This document shows positions 2,690-63,825 of a stretch of 64,000 nucleotides of DNA, piece after piece. Under the pieces are notes generated by a model, which saw nothing but the letters and a program-made list of their open reading frames with translations, did no database searches and had not been told where the DNA came from. Every line of letters starts with the position of its first letter. Positions within the stretch are counted from its first letter, which is position 1. The stretch is from Nannocystis bainbridge (GTDB lineage Bacteria > Myxococcota_A > Polyangia > Nannocystales > Nannocystaceae): assembly GCF_028368995.1 (NCBI RefSeq), contig NZ_JAQNDL010000004.1:544001-608000 (forward strand). The letters run 5' to 3'. The position numbers and the translations under genes were made by a program.

Positions 2690-4714
2690 TCAGCCGGCGG
2701 CCGCGATCACCTCGAGCAGGCCGGCGCCGTACTTGTCGGCCTTGGCCGGGCCGATCCCGTGGGCGAGCAGCAGCTGGTCGCGGGTGCGCGGGCGCAGCAG
2801 CGCGAGGTCGCGCAGGCTGCGGTCGCTGGCGACCACGTAGGGCGGGACCCCGTCGCGGCTGGCGACCTGCATGCGGTGGGCGCGGAGGCGCTCGAACAGC
2901 GCCAGGGCGGCGGCGTCGAGCACGGCCTCGGGCTCGTGCGTCTTTCTGTCCTTCGGGACATGTCCCAAGGGACCTGCCCCGGGGAGCATGTCCTTTGCGG
3001 CAGGTCGATGGCGCGGCGGCAGCAGCAGGCGGGCCGGCACGGCGCCGCGCATGACCTGGCGGCCGATGTCGGTGAGGACGACGACGGGGCGGTCGTCGCC
3101 GGTGAAGTCGACCCAGCCGGCGACGACGCAGCGGCGCAGCAGGCGGAGCAGCCAGGGGCCGTCGTGATCGCGCAGGGCGCCGAAGGTCGGGGTGTTGACG
3201 AGGCCAGTGCGCTCGAGCCGCTCGTCGGCGGCGCCGCGCAGCAGGCTGACGGCCGCCTGTAGGCCGAAGCGGCGGTGGATCCGGGCGACCGCGCTGAGCG
3301 CCTTGCGCACGATCAGGGTCGTGGCCTCCGGGTCGTCGTCGGCCTCGGCCGAGAGCTGGCGGCACACGTCGCAGCGGGCGCAGCCGCCGAGCGCCTCGCC
3401 CTCGTCGCCGAAGTGGCGGAGGATCGCGTCGTGGCGGCACGAGCCGCCCTCGGCCCAGCGCATCAGCTCGAGGAAGGTGTTCCACTTGTGCTCGACCACC
3501 GCCGGCGCGGGCGGGCTGTCGTCGCCGCCGCCGCGCTCGATCAGCCGGCGCCGCAGCGGCAGGTCGCCCGGGGCGATCAGCAGCAGACCGAGCGCGTCGC
3601 GGCCGTCGCGGCCGGCGCGACCGACCTCCTGGTAGTAGGCCTCGATCGAGCCCGGCGGGGCCAGGTGGATCACCGCCCGCACGTCGCCGCGGTCGATGCC
3701 CATGCCGAAGGCGTTGGTGGCGACGACGATGTCGAGCTCGCCGCGCGAGAAGCGGGCCTGGACCCGATCGCGCTGCGGACCCTCGAGGCCGGCGTGGTAG
3801 GCCTCGGCCCGCCAGCCGCGGGTGACCAGGCGCACCGACTCCTGCTCGGTGACCTTGCGGGTGGGGGCGTAGATGATGGCTGTCCCGTAGGACATGTCCT
3901 CGGCGTCATGTCCCGAAGGACGGGCGCCGGGGGCCCGGCCGAGCGCCGCCTCGAGCGTGTGGTCGATGAGGCGCTCGCGCGACCGGCGGTCCTCCTCCTC
4001 GGCGACGTGCAGGGCCAGGTTGGGGCGGGCGAAGCCGCGGACGATCTGCGGGGTGTCGGCCGGCAGGCCCAGGCGCGACAGGATCTCGTCGCGCACCACC
4101 GGGGTGGCGGTGGCGGTGCAGGCGAGCACGCGCGCGCGCGGCAGGTCGGCCAGGAGCTCGCCGATCTGCAGGTACTCCGGGCGAAAGTCGTGGCCCCACT
4201 CGCTGATGCAGTGGGCCTCGTCGATGGCGATCAGCGGGACGGCGATCCGGCGGCAGATGTCGCGGAAGGCCGGGGCGCCGAGCCGCTCGGGGGCGACGTA
4301 GACGAGCTTGTAGTGGCCACGCGCCATGGCCCCGAGGCGGGCGCTGATCTCGGGCCCGGGCAAGGTGCTGGCGAGGAAGGTGGCCGTGACGCCGCGCGCC
4401 TCGAGGGCCCGCACCTGGTCGGCCATGAGGGCGATCAGCGGCGAGAGGACGATGGTGGTGCCCGGCAAGGCGCTGCCCGGGAGCTGGAAGGTGAGGCTCT
4501 TGCCGCCGCCGGTGGGCGCGACGAGCAGCAGCCGCCGCCGCTGCATGAGGACCTCGATGGCCTCGGCTTGACCTGGCCGAAAGGACTGGTAGCCGAGCCG
4601 CTGCAGGGCGCCCAGGAAATCGGGCCCGTCGCCCGCGCCAGGCTCCTGACGGGGGCCTCCGGGGCCGGCAGGCCGAACCGTCGCGTCGGGCTCGTGGGCG
4701 CCAGGAGAGGTCAC
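2690..4714 (-). CDS. recQ: ATP-dependent DNA helicase RecQ
   Basis: Walker [48 protein letters not shown], Zn site CRH...[10 protein letters not shown] and HRDC domains. Confidence 0.95.
2947..3002. repeat. Four 14-bp units inside recQ (RQC-HRDC linker)
   Basis: TGTCCTTCGGGACA/TGTCCCAAGGGACC/TGCCCCGGGGAGCA/TGTCCTTTGCGGCA. Confidence 0.85.
3881..3922. repeat. Three 14-bp units (42 bp) inside the recQ helicase region
   Basis: TGTCCCGTAGGACA/TGTCCTCGGCGTCA/TGTCCCGAAGGACG; encodes [14 protein letters not shown]. Confidence 0.85.
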
Positions 4715-35933: not shown

Positions 35934-35945
35934 CGCAGCGGCGCC

Positions 35946-38290: not shown

Positions 38291-38315
38291 GCGCGGATGC
38301 GTGAAGGAGGGGCCG

Positions 38316-40192: not shown

Positions 40193-40273
40193 GGGCCGAG
40201 GGTAACGCGGCGAGCCGCGCAAGTGCGCGCCCAGCCGCGCCGCTGACGGCGAAGGATGATACGGTCGTCGGCG

Positions 40274-42231: not shown

Positions 42232-42422
42232 GCGCCGAGGTTCGCACAGAACCGCCAGGTTTGGGCGGCGCGGGCGCTCGCGCGACGGGGCGCGGCCGCG
42301 CGAGGCGAGGATGGTCTTCGGGACAGGTGCGGCGCCGGGGGGCGGCGGTTGCGAGCCTCGGGGGCAAGGCGGGCGATGTCGAAAATGTCCTTGGGGACAT
42401 GTCTCGACGGACAGCGCGGGCC

Positions 42423-43304: not shown

Positions 43305-43385
43305 CGCCGGCGCGGGCTAGCACGCGCGCACGCGGGAGCCAGAGTTGGCCGCGGGCGCGCCGCTGTGCGCGGCCGCAGGGGCATG

Positions 43386-44717
43386 TCAGCGGGCGGGACG
43401 CTCGCGCCGGCCCGAGGACAGGGCCCAGCGGATCAGGAACTGGATCTTGCCGTCGCGCTGGAAGCCGCGGAAGAACTCGACGAGGTCGTCGTAGATCTTC
43501 GGGTCGCGGACGAGGCGGCCCATCGTGCCCTCGCCGCGCTCGACACCCGCGACGATCTTGTTCACGTTGCCGAGCGTGTCCTGCACGCTCTTCAGCATCT
43601 TGCCCTGCGAGTCGTAGAGCAGGCGGGTCGAGACGTTGACGTTGTAGGGGTCGTGCAGGGCGGTCGAGACCGCGGCCATCTTCTTGCGGCCGTCGTCGAC
43701 CAGCGGCTGCATGCTGTCGTCGAATTTGGACAGCGCCTTTTGACCCTTGGCGAGGAAGTGGTCGAGGTCGGCGGCGCCGTCCTGGACGCCGCGCAGCGAG
43801 CTGCCGAAGCCGCGCAGCAGGTCCTCGTCGTTGAGCATCGCGCCGACCGTGCCCTTGCCGGCGGCGGTGTTGCGCAGGTTCTCGTTGCCGGCGGCGAGCC
43901 GTTTCTGGATGTTGCGCACGGTCTCGCCGTCGCCCATCGCCGCCGCCAGCTCGGCGATGCCGCCGATGGCCTCCTCGACCTTGACGAAGCTGCCGTCGAC
44001 CTTCTCTTTGACGGCGTCGATCGTCTCGGTCATCGACGGGGTGGTCTGGATCCGCCCGCCGGGCTGGATCGGCTCGCCGCGCCCGACCGAGATCTGGATG
44101 ATCTGATCGCCGAGCACCCCGTTCTGCGAGATGACGGCGCGGCTGTCGTCTCGGATGTGAAGCATGCTGTCCTGAAAGACAGACATGGTGACGCGGATCC
44201 GGCTGTGATCGGTGGTGAAGCCGTCGCAGATGCCGGTGCTGCCGGTCCACAGCACGCCGCGGTAGCGCCGGCGCATCTCCTGAGTGACGCACACCTCGCC
44301 CTGGCGGCACTGCGAGTCCTCCTCGCACGGGGCGTGGAGCTCCTTGTTGAAGGAGTAGGACTCGAGCTCGGCGCAGTGACCCTCGGGCGCGCAGAACATG
44401 GTGCGGTCGCAGTCGTCGGTGCGGCCCTGGCCGAAGCGGCCGCGATCCTCGTTCTGGGGGTCGCACGGGTAGTCGACCCACACGAACTCGCGGAGGGTGA
44501 CGGTGCCGATCTCGATGCCCTCGATCTGGACCTTGCTGCCCTCGCGCAAGCCCGAGACCTGGCGGAAGTCGGTCGTGATCGAGACCCGCTCCTTCCACAG
44601 GTTCTGGCCCTGGGTGAACACCAACAGGCCGACGAGCGCGGCCATGCCGGAGAGGATGACGACGAGCCCGACGATCTGGTTGAGGCTCTGCTCGCTCCGG
44701 CCGGCCATTGTGCGCAT
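43386..44717 (-). CDS. MlaD/MCE family protein with a Cys-rich insertion
   Basis: N-terminal TM helix, FRQVSGLREGSKVQIEGIEIGTV, GVLGDQIIQISVG, GEGTMGRLVRDPKIYDDL. Confidence 0.88.
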   Translation of the reverse strand: MRTMAGRSEQSLNQIVGLVVILSGMAALVGLLVFTQGQNLWKERVSITTDFRQVSGLREGSKVQIEGIEIGTVTLREFVWVDYPCDPQNEDRGRFGQGRTDDCDRTMFCAPEGHCAELESYSFNKELHAPCEEDSQCRQGEVCVTQEMRRRYRGVLWTGSTGICDGFTTDHSRIRVTMSVFQDSMLHIRDDSRAVISQNGVLGDQIIQISVGRGEPIQPGGRIQTTPSMTETIDAVKEKVDGSFVKVEEAIGGIAELAAAMGDGETVRNIQKRLAAGNENLRNTAAGKGTVGAMLNDEDLLRGFGSSLRGVQDGAADLDHFLAKGQKALSKFDDSMQPLVDDGRKKMAAVSTALHDPYNVNVSTRLLYDSQGKMLKSVQDTLGNVNKIVAGVERGEGTMGRLVRDPKIYDDLVEFFRGFQRDGKIQFLIRWALSSGRRERPAR

Positions 44718-45172
44718 CGTAGCGGATCCAGCCGCGGGTGAGGAGGCCGCCGCGCGGGTCCGCCCGCGGGGTTCGCACAGGACGACCACATTCGCGCCGG
44801 GCGGGGCCTTCGGGCCACCACCGACCGGACGTTGCGTCCGGTCCCACGAGCAGGTGGTGAGGCATCGGGGAGGCGATGCGGCAGCGAGCTCGACGAGCGT
44901 CGAATGCCGCTTCGCAGCCTCCGGTGGCCCGGATCGTGGGGCGGCGGTTCGAGGCCGTGAATCAGGCCCCAGGCCGCGTCACGCGAGGAATTCACCTGGG
45001 GAGGCGAGCTACGGACCCGCGAGCGCCGGGCTGGACGGTGCGGTCCGGCCGGGTCAGCGCGGCCTGCGTCGTCGCCTGACGGAGCCGGTGCGGTGGCCGG
45101 GGAGTCGCTCGCGGCGGGCCGGATCGAGGGCTACTCGACAGCGGGGGCGCGATGTGGAATGTCCACGGCGCC

Positions 45173-46405
45173 ATGTCCGCTTCGTCTCCCGCCGCTCCGT
45201 TCGACGCGCAGGCGTTCGATGCTCACGTGATGTCGACGTACGCCCGCTACCCGATCGCGCTCGAGCGCGGCGAGGGGTGCAGGGTGTGGGACACGGAGGG
45301 GCGGGCTTACCTCGACTTCGCGGCCGGGATCGCGACCTGTACTTTGGGACATGCCCACAAGAACCTGGTCGAGGCGGTGACGCGGCAGATCGGCAAGCTG
45401 CACCACGTCTCGAACCTGTTCTACATCCCCGAGCAAGGCGCCCTGGCGGCGCTGCTGGCGGCGCTGGGGGCGGGGGAGCGGGCGTTCTTCTGCAACTCGG
45501 GGGCGGAGGCCAACGAGGCGGCGATCAAGCTGGCGCGCAAGTATGGGCGCACGCGCCTCGGCATCGAGAAGCCGGTGGTGATCGCGGCGCAGGCGAGCTT
45601 CCACGGGCGCACGCTGGCGACGCTGACGGCGACCGGGCAGGCCAAGTACCAGCAGAACTTCGACCCGCTGGTGCCGGGCTTCGTGCACGTGCCGTTCAAC
45701 GACGCCACCGCGCTCGGCGAGGCGATCGTCGAGCTCGACCGCGAGCGCAAGCAGGTGGCCGCGGTGCTGATGGAGCCGCTGCAGGGCGAGGGCGGGATCC
45801 GGCCCGGCGATCCGGCGGTGTTCCGCAAGATCCGCGAGCTGTGCGACGCCCGCGGGATCCTGCTCATGTTCGACGAGGTCCAGGTCGGCGTCGGCCGCAG
45901 CGGCAAGTGGTGGGGCCACCAGCACCTCGACGTCGAGCCCGACGTCATGACGCTGGCCAAGGGCCTGGCCGGCGGGGTGCCGATCGGCGCGATGCTCTGC
46001 AAATCGAGCTGCGACGTGTTCCAGCCCGGCGACCACGCGAGCACGTTCGGCGGCAACCCGCTGGCGTGCGCGGCGGCGCTGGCGGTGCTGATGACGATCG
46101 AGAAGGACCGGCTGGTCGACAACGCGCGGCAGCGCGGCGACCAGCTGCGCGCGGGGCTGCAGGCGCTGGCGAAGTCGTCGCCGGGCAAGATCGCCGAGGT
46201 GCGCGGCTGGGGCCTGCTGCTCGGCGCGGAGCTGGGTCCGTCCGAGACGCGCACGGCTCCCGAGATCGCCCGCGCGGCGCTCGACGCCGGGCTCCTGCTG
46301 GTCCCCGCGGGGCCGCGGGTGATCCGCTTCGTGCCGCCGCTGATCGTGTCGTCGGCCGAGATCGACGAGGCGCTGGCGGTGTTCGCCAGGGTGCTGGCGG
46401 GGTGA
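45173..46405 (+). CDS. argD: Acetylornithine aminotransferase
   Basis: FFCNSGAEANEAAIKLARK, SFHGRT, FDEVQVGVGRSG, TLAKGLAGG, HASTFGGNP. Confidence 0.94.
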   Translation: MSASSPAAPFDAQAFDAHVMSTYARYPIALERGEGCRVWDTEGRAYLDFAAGIATCTLGHAHKNLVEAVTRQIGKLHHVSNLFYIPEQGALAALLAALGAGERAFFCNSGAEANEAAIKLARKYGRTRLGIEKPVVIAAQASFHGRTLATLTATGQAKYQQNFDPLVPGFVHVPFNDATALGEAIVELDRERKQVAAVLMEPLQGEGGIRPGDPAVFRKIRELCDARGILLMFDEVQVGVGRSGKWWGHQHLDVEPDVMTLAKGLAGGVPIGAMLCKSSCDVFQPGDHASTFGGNPLACAAALAVLMTIEKDRLVDNARQRGDQLRAGLQALAKSSPGKIAEVRGWGLLLGAELGPSETRTAPEIARAALDAGLLLVPAGPRVIRFVPPLIVSSAEIDEALAVFARVLAG

Positions 46406-46515
46406 GCCTCGTTGACCTGTCTTTTCAGGCAGGTAGGATCTTCTCTCCCGCTGGCTGCGGTGCCGAAACCGCGCCGTGAGGCCGACGGGCGGCGTGCTAT
46501 CGTCGAGCTCGGCTC

Positions 46516-47841
46516 ATGACTGCGACCCTCGAATCGATCCGTGAACAGCTGGCTGCCGGCGACGCCTCCGGCGCGTGGCGGGCCCTCACGCAGGTGTTCG
46601 GTTACCCCGCGGGCGGGTCGCTCGACGAGGAGGGGTTCGCCGCGGCGCTGACGCTGACGGTCTCGATCACGCACGAGCTGGCCGGCGAGGAGGGCGTGGC
46701 CAAGATGGTGCCGGCGGCCCTCACCCCCGACGATCCGCGGGCGCTGTTTTTGGCCGGCTGGTGGCTGGCCGAGGAGCGGCAGTTTGCGATCGCGGCCAGC
46801 GTGCTCGAGCGGGCCAATCAGCTGGCGCCGGGGCAGGCCGAGATCGCCGGCGAGCTGGCCAACGCGCTCGAGCACTTGCTTCACTACGGGCCGGCGGCGC
46901 TGGTGCTCGAGGCGTCGGGGCGTGCCGACGACGATCCGCTGCTGGCGTACCTGTCGGGCTTTTACTGGCTGATGTGCGGCGACCTCGAGCGGCCGCGAGC
47001 GCGGCTGCAGCTGCTCGCCGACGTGACCGAGACCAACCTCGTGTTCATGCGCGAGGCGCTGGCAGGGATGCTGGCGCGGGCCGAAGCGCTGACGGCCGCG
47101 GGCGTGGGGCTGGAGGGCGACGCGCTGACGGCCTGGCACGCGGTGCTCAACGGTTCGCTGCTGCTCCACGAGTCGCCGCACGGCTACCCGGATCCGATGC
47201 ACGGGCGGTTCGCGTTCCTCAACGACTCGGCGACGCTGCAGCGGCTGGGGCTCGCCCGGCTGGAGCGGCTGCTGGACGCGGTCGGGCAGCGGCCGGAGCG
47301 GATCCTCGCCGCCCCCGATCGCGCCAGCCAGATCCTCGCGCACGCGGCCGCGCTGGTGCTGGAGCGGCCGCTCGAGCCGTGGACGGCCGACGCCGGGCGC
47401 CCGGGGCTGGTGGTCGCGTGGAGCCTCGATCATGTCGGCGACGTCGCGTTCCTCCGCGGCATGCGGGACCACGCGCCGGGGCGGCCGCTGTTCGTGCACG
47501 TCACCGACTGGATCGAGCCGTTCGCCTACGCGCCCGACGTGGCGACGCTGCTGGCGCAGACGGTGTTGCATCCGTTCACCGGCGGCGCGCTGACGTACGA
47601 CGCGGCGACGCAGCAGCCCGGCAGGGCCGAGCCGGACCCGCGCGAGGACGCCGAGCTGGGCGCGCTGGTGGCGGCGACGCCGGTCGCCGACGACAGCGCG
47701 GCGCCGCTCGAGCGCGTGATCGAGATCGACCGCGCGCTGGCGGGGCTGGCCGCCGATCGGCGGCCGGGGCTGCACCGCGCGGGCGGTCCGCGGCTGATCC
47801 ACCGGGCCGGCAGCCCGGTGCCGAGCAACTTCTTCCGGTGA
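46516..47841 (+). CDS. Hypothetical protein (TPR-like N-terminal half)
   Basis: Long GC3-biased ORF; LERANQLAPGQAEIAGELA helix pattern. Confidence 0.75.
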   Translation: MTATLESIREQLAAGDASGAWRALTQVFGYPAGGSLDEEGFAAALTLTVSITHELAGEEGVAKMVPAALTPDDPRALFLAGWWLAEERQFAIAASVLERANQLAPGQAEIAGELANALEHLLHYGPAALVLEASGRADDDPLLAYLSGFYWLMCGDLERPRARLQLLADVTETNLVFMREALAGMLARAEALTAAGVGLEGDALTAWHAVLNGSLLLHESPHGYPDPMHGRFAFLNDSATLQRLGLARLERLLDAVGQRPERILAAPDRASQILAHAAALVLERPLEPWTADAGRPGLVVAWSLDHVGDVAFLRGMRDHAPGRPLFVHVTDWIEPFAYAPDVATLLAQTVLHPFTGGALTYDAATQQPGRAEPDPREDAELGALVAATPVADDSAAPLERVIEIDRALAGLAADRRPGLHRAGGPRLIHRAGSPVPSNFFR

Positions 47842-47843
47842 GG

Positions 47844-47927
47844 TTGTCTTTCGGACATGTCCATCGGGGCATGTCTGAAAGAGCCTGAACGTTCGGGCAT
47901 GTGAAAGAGGACATGTCCGAACGGGCA
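47844..47927. repeat. Six 14-bp units between convergent genes
   Basis: Units at 47844, 47858, 47872, 47886, 47900 and 47914. Confidence 0.9.
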
Positions 47928-48089
47928 TGTGATGCGCGCACGCGCACGCGCGGGCGCTTGCGGGAGGCCGGGCTCAGCGGAGCGCGGCGGGCGTGGCAGC
48001 GCCGGCGGTCGCCGGTGTGTGCAATGGGCGGGCTCCGTGGGGCGGTTCGCGGCGAGCGGGGCAGCGCTGGCGGTTGCGGGCGGCCGGGC

Positions 48090-49385
48090 TCAGCGGAGCG
48101 CGGCGAGGCGGGCTTGCAGGCGGTCGAGGCCGAGGTTGCCGGGGCCGCCGAGGCTGACGCGGGCCTGCAGGCTGGCCTCGGGCGACCTGTCCTTCAGGTC
48201 ATGCATCTCGGCCGCGGCCTGGCGGTAGGCGTCGCGAAACGGCACGCCGGCGCGGGCCAGCTCGACGGCGCGGTCGGTGGCGTGCAGCTCGCCGTCGATG
48301 GCGGCGCGCATGCGGGCGCGGTCGAGCTCGAGCGTACCCACGAGCGCGGGCACGAGGGCGAGGCCGGCGAGGCCGCGGGTGAACGCGCGCAGGGTCGGGG
48401 CCTTGGTGGCCTGGAGGTCGCGGTGGTAGCCGCTCGGCAGCGACAGCAGCGACGACAGCTCGGACATCGCGCCCTCGGTGACGGAGGGCACGGCGCGCAG
48501 CAGCTCGACGACGTCCGGGTTGCGCTTGTTGGGCATGATCGACGAGCCGGTGGTGTAGGCGTCGGGCAGGCGCACGAACGCGAACTCGGCGGTCGAGAAC
48601 AGCGACAGGTCCCAGGCCAGGCGGCGGACGTCGAGCAGCGCCTGGTGCAGCGCCTGCACCGCCAGCAGCTCGAGCTTGCCGCGGCTGTTCTGGGCGTAGA
48701 TCGGCGAGACCTGCACGCGCGAGAAGCCGAGCTCGTGGGCGACGCCGTCGCGGTCGAGCGGGAGGTTGACGCCGTAGCCGGCGGCGGTGCCGAGCGGGCT
48801 CGAGTCGAGGGTGTGGGCGGTGGCGCGCGCGGTCTCGGCGTCGTCGAGGAAGGCCTCGGCGTGGCCGGCGAGCAGGGCGGCGAGCGACGACGGCACGGCC
48901 CGCTGCAAGTGGGTGTAGCCGGGCAGGGCGACGTCCTGGGTGGCCTCGGCGCGCTGCAGGCAGGCGTCGGCGCAGTCGAGGCAGCGCGCGCGCAGGGCCC
49001 CGAGGGCGTCCTTGAGCCACAGGCGCATGGCGACGAGGATCTGGTCGTTGCGGCTGCGGCCGGTGTGGACCTTGCGGCCGACGTCGCCGAGGCGCTCGCC
49101 GAGGTACCACTCGATGGCGGAGTGGCCGTCCTCGAAGCGGTCGTCGAGCACGAACTCGCCGCTGCGCACGGCCTCGGCGAACGCTTCGAGGCCCGCCACG
49201 AGGGCCTCGGCCTCGCTCGTGGCGAGCACGGCGATGCGCTGCAGGCCGTGGACGTGGGCGATCGAGGCGCGGACGTCGTGGAGGATCAGCTGGCGATCGA
49301 GGACGACGTCATCGCCGGCGCAGAACGCCTGGGCGGCGGCGTCGAGGGCGGCCTGGCCCTTGTCCCATAGCGGTCGGGTGCTCAT
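48090..49385 (-). CDS. argH: Argininosuccinate lyase
   Basis: HTGRSRNDQ, PGYTHLQRA, GSSIMPNKRNPD. Confidence 0.96.
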   Translation of the reverse strand: MSTRPLWDKGQAALDAAAQAFCAGDDVVLDRQLILHDVRASIAHVHGLQRIAVLATSEAEALVAGLEAFAEAVRSGEFVLDDRFEDGHSAIEWYLGERLGDVGRKVHTGRSRNDQILVAMRLWLKDALGALRARCLDCADACLQRAEATQDVALPGYTHLQRAVPSSLAALLAGHAEAFLDDAETARATAHTLDSSPLGTAAGYGVNLPLDRDGVAHELGFSRVQVSPIYAQNSRGKLELLAVQALHQALLDVRRLAWDLSLFSTAEFAFVRLPDAYTTGSSIMPNKRNPDVVELLRAVPSVTEGAMSELSSLLSLPSGYHRDLQATKAPTLRAFTRGLAGLALVPALVGTLELDRARMRAAIDGELHATDRAVELARAGVPFRDAYRQAAAEMHDLKDRSPEASLQARVSLGGPGNLGLDRLQARLAALR

Positions 49386-49442
49386 GCGGTGCTCCTGGCG
49401 GCGAGGCGGTGGTCTGGTCTTCGGGACAGGTGCGGCGCGCGC

Positions 49443-50396
49443 TCACGGGCCGGCGGGCTCGGGGTCGCGCGGCACCCCCTGGCGCTCGGGCAGGCCGAGG
49501 GCGAGGTTCAGGTTCTGCAGGGCCTGCGAGGCGGCGCCCTTGAGCAGGTTGTCGAGGGTGACGACGACGACGGCGTGGCGGTCGTCGACGTGGAGGCCGC
49601 CGATGGTGACGTCGTGGCGGCCGGCGACGTCGCGGACCTCGGGGATGTCGCTCGTGACGCGCACGAGCGGCTCGTCGGCGTAGACGCTGCGGTAGCGCTC
49701 GAGCAGCTCGGCGCGCTCGAGCGAACGCGCGAGCGGGAGGGTGATCGTCAGGGTGATGCCGCGGAAGAACGGGGCGACGTGAGGGACGAAGCGGACCGCG
49801 TGGCCGAGGTGATGGCTGGCCTCGCGCTCGTGCAGGTGGCCGGTGAGGGCGTAGGGCATGAGGTTGTCGCGCAGGCGCTCGGGGTCGTTGCGCGGCGAGG
49901 GGGTGGTGCCGGCGCCGCTGTAGCCGGACACGCCGAAGGCCTGCGGCGGGCCGGCGAGCAGCTCCAGCAGCGGAGCGACGCCGAGCTGGATGCCGGTGGC
50001 GTAGCAGCCGGGGTTGGCGATCCGGCGGGCGCCGCGGATCTGGGCCCGGTGGCGCTCGGGCAGGCCGTAGGCCCAGGCGGGGTCGAAGCGGTAGTCGGCC
50101 GAGAGGTCGACGAGCACGGGGCCGCGCGCGTCCAGGGCGTCGGCGTAGGCGGCGGCGAGGCCGTTCGGCAGGGCGAGCACGACGGCGTCGACGGGCCAGG
50201 AGGCGACTGTCTCGGGGGACATGTCCTCGAGGACAATGTCGGCGGGGGCGTCGGTGAGGTGGGCCCGCAGCGGGTCGCCGACGCCCTGGCGCGAGGCGGC
50301 GCGGGTCAGGCGGAGGTCGTCGTGGCCGGCGAGCAGGCGCGCGAGCTCGCCGCCGACGTGGCCGCGCGCGCCGACGAGGCCGAGGGTGAAGCTCAT
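49443..50396 (-). CDS. argC: N-acetyl-gamma-glutamyl-phosphate reductase
   Basis: GARGHVG, DLSADYR, IANPGCYAT, DNLLKGAA. Confidence 0.95.
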   Translation of the reverse strand: MSFTLGLVGARGHVGGELARLLAGHDDLRLTRAASRQGVGDPLRAHLTDAPADIVLEDMSPETVASWPVDAVVLALPNGLAAAYADALDARGPVLVDLSADYRFDPAWAYGLPERHRAQIRGARRIANPGCYATGIQLGVAPLLELLAGPPQAFGVSGYSGAGTTPSPRNDPERLRDNLMPYALTGHLHEREASHHLGHAVRFVPHVAPFFRGITLTITLPLARSLERAELLERYRSVYADEPLVRVTSDIPEVRDVAGRHDVTIGGLHVDDRHAVVVVTLDNLLKGAASQALQNLNLALGLPERQGVPRDPEPAGP

Positions 50397-50503
50397 GGCC
50401 GGCCTCCGTGAACAGGGTCGAAAGGACATGTCCACAGGAGCATGTCGTCATGGACATGCCCGCTGGGGCATGTCTGAAGGGGCATGGCGACGGGCGGGGT
50501 CAC
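50393..50503 (-). CDS. Putative 36-aa bridging ORF between argB and argC, largely made of five 14-bp units (50415-50484)
   Basis: GTG overlaps the argB stop and its TGA overlaps the argC ATG. Confidence 0.35.
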   Translation of the reverse strand: MTPPVAMPLQTCPSGHVHDDMLLWTCPFDPVHGGRP

Positions 50504-51828
50504 GCGGCGCCTCCGATGGTGTGCGCGGCCTCCAGGGTCGGCGGGGCGGCGAGGGCCCGCTCGACGCACTCCTGGATGGTCGGGAAGTCGGTGACGCCGG
50601 TCCAGAACACGGTCCAGGTGCCGCCGCTGTAGCTGCCGTCGGCGCGCTGGAAGTACCAGGGGTTGATCGGGTTGTCGACGCGGGCGCGCCAGAACAGCTG
50701 CGGGGTGTCCCGGGTCATGCGCTGCCACAAGGAGCCGCCGATGCCCTCGCCCTGGGCCTCGCCGGTGACGGCGAACTTGTCGAGGTAGGGGATCGGGCCC
50801 TCGTCGGTGAGGATGGCGGCGGCGCGGTAGCTGTCGGCCAGGTAGATCCGGCGGAACGGCTTGCGGGTGAAGTAGTCGGCGACCGGGGGCCGGCCGAAGG
50901 CGGCGGCGAGCAGGTCGGCGAGGCGCGGCAGGTCGACGCTGGCGAGCGACGGGTGGAGGATGATGCGCTCGCCGCGGCGGACCAGGGTGCCCGAGCCCTT
51001 GTGGGTGAAGAGCTCCATGGCCAAAAGGTCAGGTGAGGTGATCGAGACCGAGGAGGCGCGCGGGAGCCTGCCGAGGAGGTCGTGGATCAGCGCGAGCTTG
51101 TGGCGGGTGCTGTCGGTCAGCCACGGCTCGGCGAGCAGCGGCTCGTAGTCTTCGGCGAGGTTGACGGCCGAGATGAGGTCGCCGTACTCGTCGCGCAGGC
51201 CGCCCCGGGCCCGCAAGAAGATGATCTTGTAGGGCTGCAGGCGGACCGCGAGGGCGTGCGCGGCGAGGTCGGGGCCGAGGTCGAGGATCTGGCCGCCGGC
51301 GGTCTCGCCGATGCTGGCGAGCACGGGCATCGAGCCGGCCTTGAGGCTCGACTCGATGGCGTCGGTGTCGACGCGCACGATCCGCGCCCGCTGCTCGGCG
51401 TCGCGGTCGGCGTCGTCGAGCTCGGCCGCGAACACGCCGCCGACGACGGGCCGGCCGCGCGCGCCCATCTCCTCGAGCATGTCGACGAGCCGCAGGTTCT
51501 CGGCGCGGAACACCCGGCGCACCTGCTCGAGCGCGCGCGGCGAGGTGCGCTGGGACCAGTCGGTCGGGTCGATGCCGGCGGCGGTGAAGGCGGCCTGCAG
51601 CTGCGGCCCGACGCCGTGCACGACGACCGGGTGGAGGCCGACCTGGTGGAGGAAGTTGAGCGAGGAGGCGAGGCTCTCGAGGTCGTCGGCGAGCAGGCCG
51701 CCGCCGACCTTGATGACGGCGAAGCGCTTGTGCTCGACGCTCGAGAATTGCTTGAGGTACTGCTCGACCTCTTTGCGGCCGCCGAGGTTGCGCAGCAGCT
51801 TGACGATCAGCTCGCGGGGGTTGGGCAT
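50500..51828 (-). CDS. argB: Acetylglutamate kinase with C-terminal NAT (DUF619) domain; bifunctional NAGS/K type
   Basis: FAVIKVGG, VVVHGVGPQ, ELFTHKGSGTLVRRG, YLDKFAV...QGEGIG...LFWRAR. Confidence 0.92.
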   Translation of the reverse strand: MPNPRELIVKLLRNLGGRKEVEQYLKQFSSVEHKRFAVIKVGGGLLADDLESLASSLNFLHQVGLHPVVVHGVGPQLQAAFTAAGIDPTDWSQRTSPRALEQVRRVFRAENLRLVDMLEEMGARGRPVVGGVFAAELDDADRDAEQRARIVRVDTDAIESSLKAGSMPVLASIGETAGGQILDLGPDLAAHALAVRLQPYKIIFLRARGGLRDEYGDLISAVNLAEDYEPLLAEPWLTDSTRHKLALIHDLLGRLPRASSVSITSPDLLAMELFTHKGSGTLVRRGERIILHPSLASVDLPRLADLLAAAFGRPPVADYFTRKPFRRIYLADSYRAAAILTDEGPIPYLDKFAVTGEAQGEGIGGSLWQRMTRDTPQLFWRARVDNPINPWYFQRADGSYSGGTWTVFWTGVTDFPTIQECVERALAAPPTLEAAHTIGGAA

Positions 51829-51841: not shown

Positions 51842-52996
51842 TCAGGACAGGATCGCGCGGTAGCGGGTGGCCGCCTCGACGAGGTCGGCCAGGGGGACGT
51901 ACTCGCCCGCGGTGTGGGCCTGCTCGATCGAACCTGGCCCATAGACCAGGACGTCGCAGCCGGCGGCCGAGAACAGGGCGGCCTCGGTCCAGAAATCGAC
52001 GGGGTCGCCGGGCGGGAGGCCGAGGCGGGCGGCCAGGGCGGACGCGGCCTGGCGGGCCGCCGTCAAGCGCGCGGGGCCGCCGGCGGGCAGCGGCGGGGCG
52101 AGGAAGCCGGGCGTGAAGCGGACGCGCGCGGGGTCGGGCGCGAGCGCGAACAGCTCGGCGAGGGCGAGCTCGGGCGGGAGCTCGGGCGGCGGCCGCACGC
52201 CGAAGCGCACGGTGGCGGCGCTGGCGATCATGTTGGCCTTGAGGCCGCCCTCGACGGCGCCGAGGTTGAGCCGCAGACCCCGGAGCGAGCCGGCCGCGCC
52301 GGCGGTCTCGCTGGCGCCCGCGCGGGCGAGGGCGAGGCTGGCCCAACGGACGGCCTCGTGGACGGCGCTGTCGCGCAGGGCCCGGGCGGCGGAGGCGTGG
52401 CCGCCGATGCCGGAGAACACGGCGGTGGCGGTGCCGATCCCGCGGTGCTCGAGCACCGCGCGGCAACGGGTGGGCTCGGCGACGACGACGCTGCGGAAGG
52501 TCGGGTGCGAAGCTGTCCCGGAGGACATGTCGGATGTCCGCGGGGACAGGTCGGAGCGGGTCAGGAATTCGCGGATGCAGCGGCTGCTGCCGGCCTCCTC
52601 GTCGGACGAGAACAGCACGGCGGCGGGGCCGGTGGTGGCCTCGAGCACGCTCAGGAGGCAGGCAGCGGCGCCCTTGATGTCGCAGGCGCCGAGGCCGACG
52701 GCGAGGTCGCCCTCGATGCGCAGGCGGTGGGGGTCGGCGGTCCAGCCGGGGTCGGCGGGCACGGTGTCGACGTGGACGTTGAACAGCACCTGCGGGGCGC
52801 CGCGCACGGCCAGCAGGTAGACGCAGCCGTCGCCGAGGTCGACGGTGTCGCAGGTGAGACCTGACCCCTGGAGCATGTCCCGCAGGTACGCGAACAGCCC
52901 GGCGTCGCCGGCGATCGCCCGCGGCGGGTTGCGGGTGTCGAAGGCGACCAGGCGCGTCAGGTGTTCGAGGGTGCGCCGGAGCGTGGCTTCGGTCAT
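51842..52996 (-). CDS. argE: Acetylornithine/acetylcitrulline deacetylase (M20)
   Basis: FDTRNPPR, NVHVDTVP, GACDIKG, DEEAG, AEPT, FWTEA, QAHTAGE; ATGA overlap with argG. Confidence 0.93.
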   Translation of the reverse strand: MTEATLRRTLEHLTRLVAFDTRNPPRAIAGDAGLFAYLRDMLQGSGLTCDTVDLGDGCVYLLAVRGAPQVLFNVHVDTVPADPGWTADPHRLRIEGDLAVGLGACDIKGAAACLLSVLEATTGPAAVLFSSDEEAGSSRCIREFLTRSDLSPRTSDMSSGTASHPTFRSVVVAEPTRCRAVLEHRGIGTATAVFSGIGGHASAARALRDSAVHEAVRWASLALARAGASETAGAAGSLRGLRLNLGAVEGGLKANMIASAATVRFGVRPPPELPPELALAELFALAPDPARVRFTPGFLAPPLPAGGPARLTAARQAASALAARLGLPPGDPVDFWTEAALFSAAGCDVLVYGPGSIEQAHTAGEYVPLADLVEAATRYRAILS

Positions 52997-55509: not shown

Positions 55510-56667
55510 TCAGCGGCGGTCCTTGGCCATGGCCTTGAGGTTGGCGCGCCGCGCCTCGTGGGCGCAATCGGGGCACCAGGTGTGTTGATAGCGGATCGCG
55601 CTCGGGCGGGCCCACCAGCGGTGGCCCTTGTCGCACTCCCATTGCAGGTGGGTGTTGCGGTCGACGTATTTTTTCGAGATGCACTTGCCGCCGTTGCTGG
55701 CGGCCATGCGCTGCATCTCGGGGATGCCGAGGCGGGTGTCGGCGCATTGCGGGCACCAGCGCTCGTTGAGGATGTTGCCGCTGGTGCTGAGCCACTCGTG
55801 GCCGCTGGCGCAGCGCCAGCGCAGCTTGCGGCCCGAATGGAGGTTGTGCTCGGTGAGGAGGGCGCCGCCGCGGCGAGCGGCGATCCGGCGAACCTCGGCG
55901 ATCCAGCCGTCCTCGCGGCGACACTGCTGGCACCAATGGCCGAGGCGAATGTTGCGAGCCCGCGAGGTGAAGCGGTGGCCGCGGGCGCACTCCCAGCGCA
56001 AGGGGCCGGCGATATCGACGGTTTTGGCGGAGACGCAGCGGCCGCCCCACCGGGCGACGAGGTCGTCCATGTCGGCGAGGCTGCGGCGGCAGCGACCGCA
56101 CCAGTTGCCCTCGCGGATCTTGCGAGCCTCGGCGTCCCATTCGTGGCCGCGTTCGCAGCGGAACCGCAGCTTGTGGCCGAGCGGCGGGTATTCGCGGGAG
56201 AGGCAGCGGCCGCCCCGTTCGCGGGCGATGGCCTTGATCTTGTCGAGTTTGTCGGGGGTGCGATAGCGGCAGGTGGGGCACCAGGAGCCGCCGAGGATGA
56301 TGGCGCTGGTGGTGGACCAGCGATGGCCGCGCTTGCATTGGTAGTCAGCGCGGCCCTGGTAGCCAGGATAGGCGTCGGCGAGGCACTTGCCGCCGTGCTG
56401 GCGGGCGATGGCGCGGAGGGCGGCGAGGCGCGCGGCGGGATCGTTGCGAGGCGGGCGCGGCACGGCAGGTGCGGGCGAGGTCGGCGGGGCTGCGGCGGGG
56501 GCCGGCGAGGTCGGCGGGGCGGCGGGCTTGCGGGCGCTCGGCTCGAGCTTTGGCTTGGGGATCGGAGCGTCGGCGGGCGATTTGCGGGCGGCGGGCCTGG
56601 GCTTCGGGGCGTCGGCGCCTTGGACCGGTGTGTGCGAGCGCGGAGGCTTGGACCGGTTCGCGGGCAC
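55510..56667 (-). CDS. Protein with five tandem zinc-ribbon repeats
   Basis: Five copies of GGxC/L...CxxGHxW/F...I...WCxxC after a Pro/Ala/Lys-rich N-terminus. Confidence 0.85.
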   Translation of the reverse strand: MPANRSKPPRSHTPVQGADAPKPRPAARKSPADAPIPKPKLEPSARKPAAPPTSPAPAAAPPTSPAPAVPRPPRNDPAARLAALRAIARQHGGKCLADAYPGYQGRADYQCKRGHRWSTTSAIILGGSWCPTCRYRTPDKLDKIKAIARERGGRCLSREYPPLGHKLRFRCERGHEWDAEARKIREGNWCGRCRRSLADMDDLVARWGGRCVSAKTVDIAGPLRWECARGHRFTSRARNIRLGHWCQQCRREDGWIAEVRRIAARRGGALLTEHNLHSGRKLRWRCASGHEWLSTSGNILNERWCPQCADTRLGIPEMQRMAASNGGKCISKKYVDRNTHLQWECDKGHRWWARPSAIRYQHTWCPDCAHEARRANLKAMAKDRR

Positions 56668-57062: not shown

Positions 57063-58289
57063 ATGGCAGCAGCTTTGTCGAGGATCGACCCACCGAGCAC
57101 GCCGGGCCTGTTGGCGCTGGCCGACGGGACCCTGTTTCGCGGCCGCGCGCTCGGAGCCCACGGGCGCACGTGCGGCGAAGTCGTGTTCAACACGGCGATG
57201 ACCGGATACCAGGAGGTCGTCTCCGACCCGAGCTATCACCAGCAGATCGTGACGCTGACGGCGGCGCACGTCGGGGTGGTCGGGGTCAACGCGGACGACG
57301 AGGAAGGCCGCGGGCCGCAGGTCGCCGGGCTGGTGGTCCGCGACGCGCCGCGCATGTTCGCGTCGTGGCGCGGGCGCGAGAGCCTGGGGGCGTATCTGCA
57401 GCGCGCGGGGGTGGTGGCGGTGGCGGACATCGACACGCGCCGGCTGACGCACCTGCTGCGCGAGCGCGGGGCGATGGCGGGCTGCGTGGCGGCCGGCGAG
57501 GCGGCCCGCGACGAGGCGGGCTGCGTGGCGGCGGCGCGGGCGTTCCCGGGGCTGCAAGGCGCGGCGCTGGCGGAGGCGGTCAGCGTGCCGGAGCCGGCCG
57601 GGTGGACGGCGGGCTCGGTCCGCTGGCTCGAAGGACATGTTCGTGAGGGCATGTCCGATGCGGCAGGTCCGGAGGGGCATGTTCGTGAGGGCATGTCCCC
57701 GGGGGCAGCCGGGCACGTGGTGGCGTTCGACTTCGGGATCAAGCGCAACATCCTGCGGCTGCTGGTCGACCGCGGGCTGCGGGTGACGGTGGTGCCGGCG
57801 GCGACGACGGCGAGCCAGGCGCTGGCGCTGCGGCCGGACGGGATCTTCCTGTCGAACGGGCCGGGCGATCCGGAGCCGCTGCAGGCCCAGCAGGCGGCGA
57901 TCCGCGAGCTGGTGGCGGCGGGGCTGCCGGTGTTCGGGATCTGCCTCGGGCACCAGCTGCTGTGCCTGGCGCTGGGGGCCCGCACGTTCAAGATGAAGTT
58001 CGGCCACCACGGGGCCAACCACCCGGTGCGCGAGCTGGCGAGCGGGCGGGTGCTGATCACGAGCCAGAACCACGGGTTCGCGGCCGACCCGGCGACGCTG
58101 CCGGCGGCGCTGCGGGCGACGCATGTGTCGCTGTTCGACGGGTCGCTGCAAGGGGTGGAGCTGGCGGATCGGCCAGTGTTCTCGTTCCAGGGCCACCCGG
58201 AGGCGTCGCCGGGGCCGCGCGAGCTGGCGGGGCTGTTCGACAGGTTCGCCCGCGAGGTGAGCGCGGGCCGGACCACGAAGGGGGTGTGA
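57063..58289 (+). CDS. carA: Carbamoyl-phosphate synthase small subunit
   Basis: [40 protein letters not shown]. Confidence 0.96.
57624..57707. repeat. Six 14-bp units (84 bp, 28 codons) inside carA
   Basis: Units at 57624, 57638, 57652, 57666, 57680 and 57694; peptide EGHVREGMS repeated at a 42-bp period. Confidence 0.92.
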
Positions 58290-63727: not shown

Positions 63728-63825
63728 TGGCTGCAAAAGAATGTCTATAGGGACATGTCGTCAGAGACATGTCTCTAAAATAATGTCGTTATGGACATGT
63801 CAATATGGACATGTCCTTCGGGGAC
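63728..63825. repeat. Seven 14-bp units, the longest array in the window
   Basis: TG starts at 63728, 63742, 63756, 63770, 63784, 63798 and 63812. Confidence 0.92.

Follow-up and report, generated by a model that had tools for sequence, protein, structure and literature searches.

Why does carA, which encodes the small subunit of carbamoyl-phosphate synthase, carry a phased array of 14-nt units within its reading frame, and what are the related arrays in recQ and in an argE-like gene nearby? An earlier note on this DNA, the 64,000-nt stretch referred to here as the window, had described all three as insertions of one motif into the loops of enzymes. The host genes and their arrays are:

57063 to 58289, plus strand: carA, host gene (Pfam CPSase_sm_chain PF00988 and GATase PF00117)
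57624 to 57707, plus strand: carA array, 6 × 14 = 84 nt, cores at 57633, 57647, 57675, and 57689
2690 to 4714, minus strand: recQ helicase gene, host (Pfam DEAD, Helicase_C, RecQ_Zn_bind, RQC, HRDC)
3881 to 3922, minus strand: recQ array 1, between the helicase lobes, cores at 3890 and 3904 flanked by weak units, 11 residues
2947 to 3002, minus strand: recQ array 2, in the variable linker before HRDC, cores at 2956, 2970, and 2984 and a weak unit at 2998
51842 to 52996, minus strand: argE-like M20 peptidase/deacetylase gene, host (Pfam Peptidase_M20 and M20_dimer)
52509 to 52553, minus strand: argE-like array 1, GGACATGTCG at 52523 and GGACAGGTCG at 52544, peptide SDLSPRTSDMSSGTASH
52857 to 52880, minus strand: argE-like array 2, two units, in a region of 44 nt in 5/5 same-genus genomes

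The carA product matches E. coli CarA (1cs0_B) with E = 7.9e-136, and the array contributes 28 residues in frame. The six units and 84 nt of the earlier note were borne out, as four cores and two degenerate in-register units, at 57661 (CGGCAGGTCC) and 57703. In the AF2 model of CarA, residues 182–217 are coil and residues 189–213 have pLDDT below 50, so that the array is predicted to lie in a disordered interdomain linker, where the note had placed it. The protein is 14 aa longer than E. coli CarA and 15–18 aa longer than its nearest motif-free orthologs. Within the genus, the length of the array is constant (4/4 anchored and 5/5 aligned orthologs; missing from L007 and L008), and the encoded peptides differ among orthologs while the DNA cores are retained. 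The carA of the genome under study (G000, about 90% complete) holds a 42-nt internal copy, and its array folds in the sense direction with z = −3.78 vs. −0.61, a single case.

The other two hosts are less uniform. The region of recQ array 1 measures 44 nt in 5/5 same-genus orthologs, is 3 aa shorter in the sister clade, and is 6–11 aa shorter in more distant orthologs; array 2 is read as 17 residues, and motif-free lineages have a linker of similar length. The cores of argE-like array 1 stand 21 nt apart, not 14, and the register mixes 14 and 21 nt. The motif is in frame in both genes, as had been claimed; some of the unit counts were generous. The two units reported in the argE-like gene exist at this 21-nt distance, and the second array there had been overlooked. 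The ArgE-like loop is hypervariable between species: the distance between conserved anchors is 90 nt in the outgroup G009, 141 nt in G000, 204 nt in G005, 264 nt in G010, 375 nt in G001, and 359 nt, out of frame, in G007. The loop of G000 is 51 nt longer than that of G009, and variation between species spans 63–234 nt.

These arrays belong to a large family with a period of 14 nt, in which each unit consists of the near-palindrome GGRCATGYCC (10 nt) and a spacer of 4 nt that varies. The window contains 99 matches to GGRCATGTCC with at most one mismatch vs. 9.15 expected, a count reached in 0/100 shuffles, and the 11.05-Mb genome contains 7,127 (~0.64 units per kb). The next match lies 14 nt away 1,619 times, 28 nt away 408 times, and 42 nt away 152 times; off-register distances are rare (13 nt, 15 times; 15 nt, twice). 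A weight matrix identified 2,532 arrays of at least two units in the real genome vs. one in the reversed (not complemented) genome, ranging from 2 to 12 units in strict 14-nt phase. Their sequences are nearly all unique (313 distinct among 315 four-unit spans); arrays of equal span differ almost throughout, and no conserved element of ~100–150 nt was found among them. Spacing along the genome is uneven (CV 1.54), and the idea that genic arrays fill gaps between intergenic ones was tested and rejected (p = 0.32), which together reveal no visible need for a set array density.

Among the genomes searched, the repeat is found in the source genus only. The exact two-unit pattern has 184 matches in G000 and is present in 9/10 other same-genus genomes, in 0/30 genomes of relatives from other genera, and, elsewhere in the phylum, in 1/300 genomes, as a single match. 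Rfam gave no match at gathering score across the whole window. Among the papers listed from the open literature, those matching GGACATGTCC concerned p53 or were unrelated, and those on Sorangium, on myxobacterial REP sequences and terminators, and on palindromic or hairpin repeats yielded no description of the repeat.

Position of the Repeat Relative to Genes

Genes were called by our own crude codon log-odds scoring, with no annotation used; an earlier GC3-based filter was dropped because it admitted antisense shadow ORFs. Convergent gaps hold 731 of the 2,532 arrays (29%) vs. 2.2% of random segments, a 13-fold enrichment, tandem gaps hold 801 (32%) vs. 7.8%, and divergent gaps hold 142 (5.6%) vs. 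4.8%. Coding sequences contain 613 arrays (24%) vs. 79% of random segments, and the remaining 245 lie at gene edges. An array occupies 697 of the 1,496 convergent gaps (47%). In tandem gaps, arrays start at a median of 53 nt past the stop codon and end 192 nt before the next start, and the median distance of arrays from stop codons is 31–53 nt. The chief location of the repeat is the first tens of bases 3′ of stop codons. The window holds the following intergenic arrays (no strand assigned):

32154 to 32219: five units, convergent genes, RNA fold z = −10.08 (plus) and −9.90 (minus)
19319 to 19384: five units, convergent genes, fold z = −8.34
47853 to 47932: six units, convergent genes, fold z = −8.11
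13372 to 13521: three arrays, convergent genes, length and unit number varying in every relative
1554 to 1659: two arrays of two units, convergent genes
22891 to 22942: four units, convergent genes
38325 to 38362: array between convergent genes
50410 to 50489: six units, directly 3′ of the minus-strand gene 50500 to 51828
36003 to 36026: two units, a perfect complementary pair, GGGCATGTCC / GGACATGCCC
63751 to 63816: array adjoining the stop codon of the minus-strand gene starting at 63832

Adjacent intergenic units are kept complementary to one another and fold as 10–17-bp hairpins on both strands. In convergent gaps, the complementarity of adjacent units exceeds the expectation from the motif (permutation test, z = 12.3), and pairing is complete across the six outer positions in 10.8% of cases vs. 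3.1% expected. Direct-repeat likeness of the same units shows no excess (z = 0.4), and the self-complementarity of single units falls below expectation (z = −9.9). Intergenic arrays fold as RNA with z = −8 to −10 on both strands; that at 32154 to 32219, for instance, forms two hairpins on either strand. The arrays turn over quickly, 90 of 96 convergent-gap comparisons not being anchorable and layouts differing between species. Two minor observations concern the pairing itself: mutual information between units at positions 2 and 7 is weak, and in tandem gaps sense G-U pairs number 1,455 vs. 1,074 A-C pairs, a difference confounded by strand composition bias.

These hairpins resemble intrinsic (bidirectional) terminators in being G+C-rich, in lying tens of bases past stop codons with A/T-richer spacers, and in being able to fold on both strands. 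They differ in that all arrays share one stem sequence and have short U-tracts. A consensus terminator scan of positions 30001–50000, with a U-tract of at least 5 T in 8 nt required after the hairpin, placed none of its 10 hits on any of the four arrays there. Given the short U-tracts, a terminator role of the intergenic arrays is no more than putative.

Arrays Within Genes

The earlier note did not mention the 3′ ends of genes, the main habitat, and the genic copies with which it dealt are a depleted minority. Of the 613 genic arrays, 423 are of high confidence; these comprise 309 arrays of 2 units, 67 of 3, 30 of 4, 8 of 5, 4 of 6, 4 of 7, and 1 of 8. The dominance of two-unit arrays (309/423) runs counter to the supposed rule that units come in multiples of three. 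Since 14 = 2 mod 3, the reading phase shifts from each unit to the next, which yields G-H-V, D-M-S, and T-C/G-P in turn and a peptide period of 14 residues; genic arrays occur in all three phases (GHV, DMS, T(C/G)P) and on both strands. They sit in loops or linkers, and their hosts also include MurE-like, SMC, RlmKL-like, and IucA/C proteins. Three further genic arrays lie in the window:

45347 to 45370, plus strand: two units in a class-III aminotransferase gene (45227 to 46405; PF00202, E = 2.7e-120), conserved in 5/5 same-genus genomes
14432 to 14455, minus strand: two units in ORF 13542 to 15113, which has no Pfam match, conserved in 5/5 genomes
26300 to 26323, plus strand: two units in a microbial PARG-domain gene (26080 to 27861), left flank not anchorable in relatives

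Sequence alignments show two routes by which genic arrays arise: substitutions in place, which put a CATG at each 14-nt step and leave the length unaltered, and in-frame slippage. The first is illustrated by a MurE-like gene, in which G000, G010, and G001 carry GVMSRGACLKEHDLEAMS, with four units, while G009, G036, G013, and the paralogs carry a GVASRGPALRAEDLAARR-type segment of equal length with no units; by our own count, 24 of 54 bases are changed, within a conserved domain. In gene L154, units number 0 in G013 and G036, 1 in G009, 1–2 in G010 and G001, and 3 in G000, with equal length across genomes except in G013, where the gene is 1 aa shorter. Slippage is seen as in-frame length changes of genic arrays in 21-, 42-, and 63-nt steps, including a 42-nt duplication in the RlmKL-like gene of G000 only, and as IucA/C length differences of 14 and 21 aa, a net gain relative to motif-free lineages. 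The claim that the genic arrays are insertions therefore holds in part: carA, argE-like, and IucA/C genes are longer, whereas the MurE-like gene and L154 have equal lengths, as, largely, do the recQ sites. The outcome that the earlier note had named as refuting occurs in the MurE-like gene, whose motif-free orthologs in G009, G013, and G036 do not differ from it in length over this segment. As a separate observation, synteny with the outgroup G009 is broken, 28 of 415 proteins being matched, with only the three already-studied hosts among them.

The hairpin signature of the intergenic arrays does not extend to genes. Adjacent genic units show no excess complementarity (z = 0.4), and genic arrays have no sense-strand folding advantage (−22.1 vs. 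−22.2 kcal/mol; sense better in 51/114, antisense in 62/114), which together leave a hairpin function unsupported inside genes. The cores are conserved. Among three other species (47 pairwise comparisons), flanking codons show identities of 0.959/0.963/0.901 (codon positions 1/2/3), cores of 0.935/0.947/0.941, and spacers of 0.870/0.958/0.740, and comparisons against G000 give the same core/flank/spacer pattern. These figures come from 24 genic arrays within a single 360-kb syntenic block, in closely related species that are not independent. The core codons are also rare: across the genome, the shares of CAT, GGA, ACA, and TGT in their codon families are 8.6%, 2.2%, 1.9%, and 8.9%, respectively. 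The third-position conservation and the rare codons argue for a force that would act at the nucleic-acid level, in agreement with the earlier suggestion of a DNA signal kept at a cost to coding.

Selection on the protein edits the genic arrays, for example by replacing CATG with CAGG where Cys would result: in the T-C-P phase, CAGG occupies 44% of centres vs. 4% in intergenic units. The recurrence of the encoded peptides in unrelated proteins, which the earlier note had remarked on, was upheld by observed vs. expected counts of 406 vs. 148.5 for DMS (2.73-fold), 654 vs. 459.6 for GHV (1.42-fold), and 233 vs. 136.4 for TCP (1.71-fold).

Explanations and Known Systems

We propose that the genic segments are copies of a genus-specific repeat held by a force at the nucleic-acid level, with the intergenic copies serving as 3′-end hairpins, a reading to which we assign an even chance (about 0.5). 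A force operating in the 14-nt register would keep the cores despite codon preference and the demands of the protein; selection for a hairpin or for a factor-binding signal is a candidate. The same force would create and homogenise units beside existing ones, and the intergenic copies would act as 3′-end hairpins that are either terminator-like or RNA-stabilising. As for the genic copies, the host enzymes most likely tolerate them as passengers of this force and do not use them as devices. More tentatively, the repeat is possibly the recognition signal of a putative system, specific to the genus, that recognises CATG palindromes at a 14-nt phase and rewrites resident DNA in place; it may serve in recombination or the uptake of self-DNA, or be the target of a nucleoid- or RNA-binding factor. 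If so, units are added beside old ones even in the conserved domains of essential enzymes such as MurE, SMC, and CarA, and GHV/DMS/TGP peptides are imposed on hundreds of proteins.

A rather unlikely alternative is a drive of the kind attributed to uptake sequences, in which the motif is preferred by genus-specific uptake and recombination or by biased repair or conversion, so that better-matching alleles spread, intergenic pairs are co-opted as hairpins, and genic copies are pure passengers. Such a drive would suit a genus-specific motif at ~0.64 units per kb, the equal-length substitutions behind the MurE-like and L154 arrays, the 1.4- to 2.7-fold tripeptide enrichment with its reading-phase biases, the scarcity of arrays in non-syntenic, lower-G+C DNA, and genic arrays that are not hairpin-shaped. 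ComEC and DprA homologs are present, which is permissive only, as they also occur in 10/14 control genomes; the genus is not known to be competent. Against it, the uptake sequences known so far occur singly, in a defined orientation, and without palindromic symmetry, whereas the arrays described here are phased at 14 nt and reach 12 units. In addition, 24% of arrays lie in ORFs vs. 34.5–65% for uptake sequences, according to PMC2817400.

DNA uptake sequences are the closest analogue in their sequence features. PMC2817400 describes Haemophilus and Neisseria uptake sequences as doubling tripeptide frequencies, occupying poorly conserved positions, and being absent from genes without homologs. 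According to that article and bioRxiv 10.1101/2025.10.24.684340, DUS of Neisseriaceae and USS of Pasteurellaceae share with the present repeat a clade-specific motif of ~10 nt at about one per 1–2 kb; inverted pairs that form hairpins 3′ of genes; many ORF copies of substitution origin at tolerant positions, with raised tripeptides and a phase bias; and absence from newly acquired DNA, where the present arrays are scarce. The differences are that the unit here is near-palindromic and set in a strict 14-nt register in arrays of 2–12, and that slippage by 21 or 42 nt is a further means of expansion for genic arrays.

An improbable reading is that of a neutral, slippage-prone tandem repeat, a minisatellite-like by-product at a palindrome that has neither function nor drive and persists where harmless. 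The length hypervariability of ArgE-like, IucA/C, and RlmKL-like genes, the rapid turnover of intergenic arrays, and the 42-nt internal copy in the carA of G000 are all consistent with it. It does not readily account for cores conserved above flanking third positions while spacers drift, for the in-register gain of units through many substitutions in a conserved domain (MurE-like), for arrays that are nearly all unique instead of recent tandem copies, or for the 47% occupancy of convergent gaps.

Little probability attaches to in-frame transposition into genes by a miniature mobile element akin to REP/REPIN sequences, MITEs, or Rickettsia palindromic elements. The net length gain at carA, argE-like, and IucA/C genes vs. 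motif-free lineages and the palindromic, high-copy, mostly extragenic units could be read in this way. However, the Y1 (RAYT-type) transposase PF01797 has no match in the ~90% complete G000 (6/14 control genomes match), the arrays contain no conserved element sequence and can originate in place at equal length, only 19 of the 162 genic arrays covered by a paralog alignment lie mostly opposite a gap, and target-site duplications were not seen in the aligned cases (carA, argE-like, MurE-like, and L154/RlmKL-like). REP, BIME, and REPIN sequences of enterobacteria and pseudomonads are short palindromes whose copies number from hundreds to thousands; they lie mostly after genes and between convergent genes, are often clustered, and form RNA hairpins. 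The present repeat resembles them in its palindromic unit, its 2,532 arrays, and the 76% of these outside ORFs, and differs in that no RAYT-type transposase was found, in its fixed phase of 10 nt plus a 4-nt spacer, in that a quarter of arrays lie inside ORFs, and in that arrays are built in place. Rickettsia palindromic elements are defined inserts of ~100–150 nt that enter genes in frame, and the protein survives with an extra peptide on its surface. They, too, place a palindromic repeat in frame within protein-coding genes, but the units here are of 14 nt, form no defined element, and in some cases originated without a length change. The likeness to these elements that the earlier note had drawn is thus weak, all the more so as the arrays are nearly all unique.

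Selection at the protein level for a peptide GHVxxDMSxxTGPx, a 14-residue linear motif or linker of which the DNA repeat would be the shadow, is hardly credible despite the recurrence of the peptide in many proteins and the 2.73-fold enrichment of DMS, given that 76% of arrays lie outside genes, that all three phases and both strands are used, that ortholog peptides vary while the DNA cores stay, that core third positions are conserved and rare codons used, and that the carA segment falls in a stretch of predicted disorder.

Under the preferred reading, that of a repeat held by a nucleic-acid-level force, a noncoding signal would prevail over codon preference and protein sequence across hundreds of genes of one genus, core enzymes included, and arrays would be built within genes without insertion. 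The load that motifs impose on coding regions has so far been studied chiefly in uptake sequences. The present repeat is possibly a second such system, one that adds phased arrays and in-frame slippage leading to hypervariable loops, as in the ArgE-like protein, and some reader of a 10-nt palindrome every 14 nt becomes a search target in these large soil bacteria. In practical terms, the arrays are a pitfall for gene calling, alignment, and the prediction of repeats or terminators, and they can mark resident vs. newly acquired DNA, in line with a build-up of arrays over residence time: bins with synteny to relatives hold 3.06 arrays per 10 kb and bins with no match 0.87, and the largest array deserts have a lower G+C content, of 0.684–0.704.

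A phased, genus-specific repeat at gene ends

The repeat is genome-wide, genus-specific and far above chance. In the window, GGRCATGTCC (at most one mismatch) has 99 matches against 9.15 expected, a count reached in 0 of 100 shuffles, and the whole assembly (11.05 Mb in 5 contigs, 71-72% G+C) holds 7,127. The next match lies 14 nt away in 1,619 cases, 28 nt in 408, 42 nt in 152 and 56 nt in 35, off-register distances being rare (13 nt, 15 cases; 15 nt, 2 cases), and the motif logo reads G-G-R-C-A-T-G-Y-C-C and then shows four A/T-richer positions under weak constraint. A weight matrix finds 2,532 arrays of at least two in-register units, covering 112,070 bases, and 1,215 of at least three; the reversed genome yields 1 and 0, respectively. 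An exact two-unit pattern is found 184 times here and 1-127 times each in 9 of the 10 further genomes of the genus, with a single match in one of 300 other genomes of the phylum and none in 30 relatives' genomes from other genera; its backward-read control gave 0 in every genome searched. The arrays do not replicate a single element: those of equal span are almost never identical in sequence (for instance, the 315 four-unit spans comprise 313 different sequences).

Array positions were assigned with self-called genes from a codon log-odds model (8,071 ORFs, coding fraction 0.79-0.84), a crude set whose starts are often too late.

Positions of the 2,532 arrays, with the share of arrays and of random segments
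Between convergent genes: 731; 29% vs 2.2%
Between tandem genes: 801; 32% vs 7.8%
Between divergent genes: 142; 5.6% vs 4.8%
Overlapping a gene edge: 245
Inside ORFs: 613; 24% vs 79%

Arrays occupy 697 of the 1,496 convergent gaps, compared with 746 among 5,075 between tandem genes and 122 among 1,495 between divergent ones. Tandem-gap arrays start a median 53 nt past the upstream stop and end 192 nt short of the next start, and convergent-gap arrays lie a median 31 and 39 nt from the two stop codons. The convergent and tandem excess, together with this nearness to stop codons, indicates that the main habitat is the 3' ends of genes, as exemplified by these window arrays:

1554-1659
13372-13521
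19319-19384
22891-22942
32154-32219
38325-38362
47853-47932
50410-50489
63751-63816

Arrays are clustered, not evenly spaced (CV 1.54), and the distance from genic to intergenic arrays does not exceed that from random coding positions (p = 0.32). Array density is 0.87 per 10 kb in DNA without a counterpart in three sister species, compared with 3.06 otherwise, and a 20-kb non-syntenic run holds none. Among the longest stretches devoid of arrays is one of 200 kb (G000:C1:1098872-1299353, where G000 is the genome holding the window and C1 a contig), in which 105 short genes were called (median 798 nt) and G+C is 0.689 vs about 0.715 for the genome; it has probably been acquired recently. In five of the eight longest, G+C is 0.684-0.704 against a genome average of 0.711-0.720; among the other array-free stretches, of 44-89 kb, four have such lower values (0.684-0.704).

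The intergenic copies are hairpins at gene ends: two neighboring units can form a 10-bp stem closed by a 4-nt loop. Between convergent genes, neighbors are complementary at 3.80 of six variable positions vs 3.50 predicted from the motif (z = 12.3), and all six pair in 10.8% vs 3.1% predicted; adjacent units are not more alike as direct repeats (z = 0.4), and the self-complementarity of single units is below expectation (z = -9.9). The exact variants GGGCATGTCC and GGACATGCCC form complementary neighbors 62 times vs 34 non-complementary. Folding of intergenic examples from the window gives z-scores of -8.1 to -10.1, for both strands wherever both were tested, their stems extending into the outer spacers and their flanks consisting of short A/U runs; among orthologs of 32154-32177, read by eye, stems are kept by paired changes (GAG..CTC, GGG..CCC, GGA..TCC). 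These arrays are not canonical terminators, as none of 10 consensus-terminator hits in 30001-50000 falls on one, and Rfam has no match anywhere in the window. Within the genus they turn over fast, the same gap carrying a different number and layout of arrays, and 120-nt flanks failed to anchor 90 of the 96 comparisons made in convergent gaps. At 22881-22952 and 19309-19394, the flanks lie 1.8-3.3 kb apart in sister genomes, DNA having been gained or lost at arrays.

Arrays within genes

The earlier note held that arrays had been inserted in-frame into loops of CarA, RecQ and ArgE. These and another host in the window are as follows:

57063..58289, + strand: carA ORF, 408 codons; Pfam CPSase_sm_chain and GATase; PDB match 1cs0_B (E. 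coli CarA), E = 7.9e-136
57624-57707, + strand: carA array, 84 nt, 28 residues read; four clear cores and two degenerate units
2690..4714, - strand: recQ; cores at 3890 and 3904 (first array) and at 2956, 2970 and 2984 (second array)
51842..52996, - strand: argE-like M20 gene; clear cores at 52523 and 52544
45227..46405: class-III aminotransferase gene, array host

The carA product is the small subunit of carbamoyl-phosphate synthase by Pfam and PDB-sequence match, and its six-unit, 84-nt in-frame array is real, with clear cores GGACATGTTC at 57633, GGGCATGTCC at 57647, GGGCATGTTC at 57675 and GGGCATGTCC at 57689 and degenerate units in register at 57661 and 57703. The linker exceeds that of E. 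coli CarA by 14 aa and those of L007 and L008, the nearest orthologs without the motif, by 15-18 aa; a second CarA paralog of the same genome, which lacks the array, has a gap opposite 18 of 22 array residues. Array length is identical in five of five close same-genus orthologs, and the peptide diverges widely across species (a 23-residue form vs DGHVSESRSEKTGLEGQVHKDMS) while the cores keep phase. An AlphaFold2 model (16-sequence alignment; mean pLDDT 83.7, pTM 0.86) predicts a floppy interdomain loop, in line with the linker location first guessed: residues 189-213 have pLDDT < 50, residues 182-217 lack secondary structure, and everything else apart from the first 8 residues is modelled. Units 1-2 of carA (57635-57656) equal units 4-5 (57677-57698), GTGA spacer included, at a distance of 42 nt; such identical pairs are present in no sister species, pointing to recent conversion or slippage within the array.

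Both groups of recQ cores were located where proposed; the first array exceeds its sister-clade counterpart by 3 aa, and lineages without the motif have a linker of similar length at the second. The argE site also exists, its clear cores being 21 nt apart, not 14, and a second array at 52857-52880 had been overlooked. The argE-like loop, made of SDLSPRT-like 7-residue repeats, measures 90 nt from anchor to anchor in the outgroup genome G009, 141 in G000, 204 in G005, 264 in G010 and 375 in G001. In G007, an expanded array of 359 nt between anchors breaks the frame and leaves the gene halves in different frames (L049/L059, on G007:C2); either repeat slippage has turned this gene into a pseudogene or the repeat is misassembled.

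Further hosts are a PARG-domain protein, a histidine kinase, a SIR2-like protein, an IucA/IucC synthetase, a MurE-like ligase (best PDB match 4bub_A, E = 5.7e-58), the SMC protein L157 (G000:C4:397587-401219) and the RlmKL-like rRNA methyltransferase L155 (G000:C3:1608164-1610398). The five-unit array of the SMC protein spans about residues 595-617, within the Pfam hinge domain (531-659), and its length is kept in three sister species. Of ten hosts scanned, covering nine of the largest genic arrays (6-8 units) plus two with four units, four have a Pfam domain at E ≤ 1e-5.

Insertion fits a net gain in length at CarA, the ArgE-like protein and IucA/IucC, the last with about 34 extra residues vs G013 and differences of 14 and 21 residues from G001 and G010. 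It does not fit the MurE-like gene or L154, where units are present essentially without gain. The four units of the MurE-like gene read GVMSRGACLKEHDLEAMS in G000, G010 and G001; G009, G036, G013 and the paralogs have a GVASRGPALRAEDLAARR-type segment of exactly equal length, with shared intervening residues and no unit, so that orthologs without the motif carry the same segment at the same length. Of its 54 bases, 24 differ between G000 and G009 by hand count, concentrated on the four CATG centers. L154 has no in-register units in G013 and G036, one in G009, one or two in G010 and G001 and three in G000, in a segment of equal length throughout except in G013, where it is 1 aa shorter. Paralog alignments have at least half of the segment opposite a gap in 19 of 162 genic arrays vs 22 of 664 control segments, a test that tends to miss large insertions. 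Within one syntenic block of 360 kb, comparing 25 genic arrays across three other species of the genus gave equal length in 52 of 75 comparisons, a multiple-of-three difference in 3, another difference in 1 and no anchoring in 19. Between its two methyltransferase domains, L155 of G000, and of no other genome compared, has a tandem duplication of 42 nt (three units, 14 aa), a clean and recent case of in-frame slippage. Units enter genes by two routes, in-place substitution and slippage in 21- or 42-nt steps.

Conservation of array DNA and editing at the protein level

Identity by codon position (1/2/3) in the 360-kb block
G000 vs each other species (49 comparisons, 24 arrays): flanks 0.952/0.958/0.873; cores 0.931/0.902/0.913; spacers 0.882/0.929/0.701
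The three other species among themselves (n = 47; free of bias from choosing arrays in G000): flanks 0.959/0.963/0.901; cores 0.935/0.947/0.941; spacers 0.870/0.958/0.740

The codon-position pattern is flattened in the cores, whose third positions are above those of the flanks while spacer thirds drift; CATG centers have an identity of 0.96-0.99. These values come from one block and close species, and several two-unit arrays may lie in constrained protein segments. The cores need codons that are rare in their own families genome-wide (CAT 8.6%, GGA 2.2%, ACA 1.9%, TGT 8.9%). What is retained is the DNA rather than the peptide, with cores conserved against codon preference.

Of the 613 genic arrays, 423 form a strict set: coding scores are good and in the same frame to the left and right of the array, and neither end is closer than 90 nt. 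The numbers of units per array, 2 (309), 3 (67), 4 (30), 5 (8), 6 (4), 7 (4) and 8 (1), show no preference for the multiples of three once proposed as preserving frame. Because 14 leaves a remainder of 2 on division by 3, successive units pass through all three reading phases, and unrelated proteins share the resulting 14-residue period of the GHVxxDMSxxTGPx type. The tripeptides predicted to be enriched proteome-wide are all raised: DMS occurs 406 times vs 148.5 expected (2.73x), TCP 1.71x and GHV 1.42x, along with MSP (2.04x) and GMS (1.61x). In the T-C-P phase, 44% of units have CAGG (Gly) at the center, compared with 7-13% of those in the remaining phases and 4% of those between genes, and strong units are fewest in that phase (117 vs 221 and 269). 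Protein-level selection thus edits array DNA.

Within genes, adjacent-unit complementarity is not above motif prediction (z = 0.4), and sense transcripts have no folding advantage (-22.1 vs -22.2 kcal/mol antisense; sense better in 51, antisense in 62, n = 114). The carA array is a single case of far better folding in sense, via G-U pairs (-49.6, z = -3.78, vs -28.7, z = -0.61). GC skew is positive in 16 of 16 4-kb bins of the window (1-64000; 0.006-0.23), and the sign of the overall skew differs among contigs, so that strand-composition bias confounds strand tests on arrays.

Origin of the repeat

We propose that a nucleic-acid-level force acting in the 14-nt register would make and keep units, genes included. 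The units would serve as a functional hairpin or factor-binding signal, in a family that spreads and is homogenized in place and whose genic copies may be passengers; we give this reading a probability of about one half. A drive like that of DNA uptake sequences comes second and is considerably less probable: it accounts for the genic data no less well than the first reading, though not for the phased arrays, and the ComEC and DprA homologs that were found lend it little weight. Uptake sequences (PMC2817400; bioRxiv 10.1101/2025.10.24.684340) are the nearest analogue, followed by REP/REPIN, Rickettsia palindromic elements and intrinsic terminators, and the loading of coding sequence by a DNA motif is already known from uptake sequences. 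Our literature search found no description of the present repeat; new relative to uptake sequences are the phased arrays, the in-register growth inside conserved domains and the slippage-driven hypervariable loops. Neutral slippage as the source of the repeat is unlikely. A mobile element is more doubtful still, a search of G000 having found no RAYT-type transposase, and selection for the peptide itself is very improbable.

The window also encodes at 55510-56667 (- strand) a 385-aa ORF in which a Pro/Ala-rich N terminus precedes about five tandem Cys-pair modules (GG+C.S.EY...L.F.C..GH.W......I..G.WC..C); from this pattern, the product looks like a repeated zinc-ribbon-type protein.
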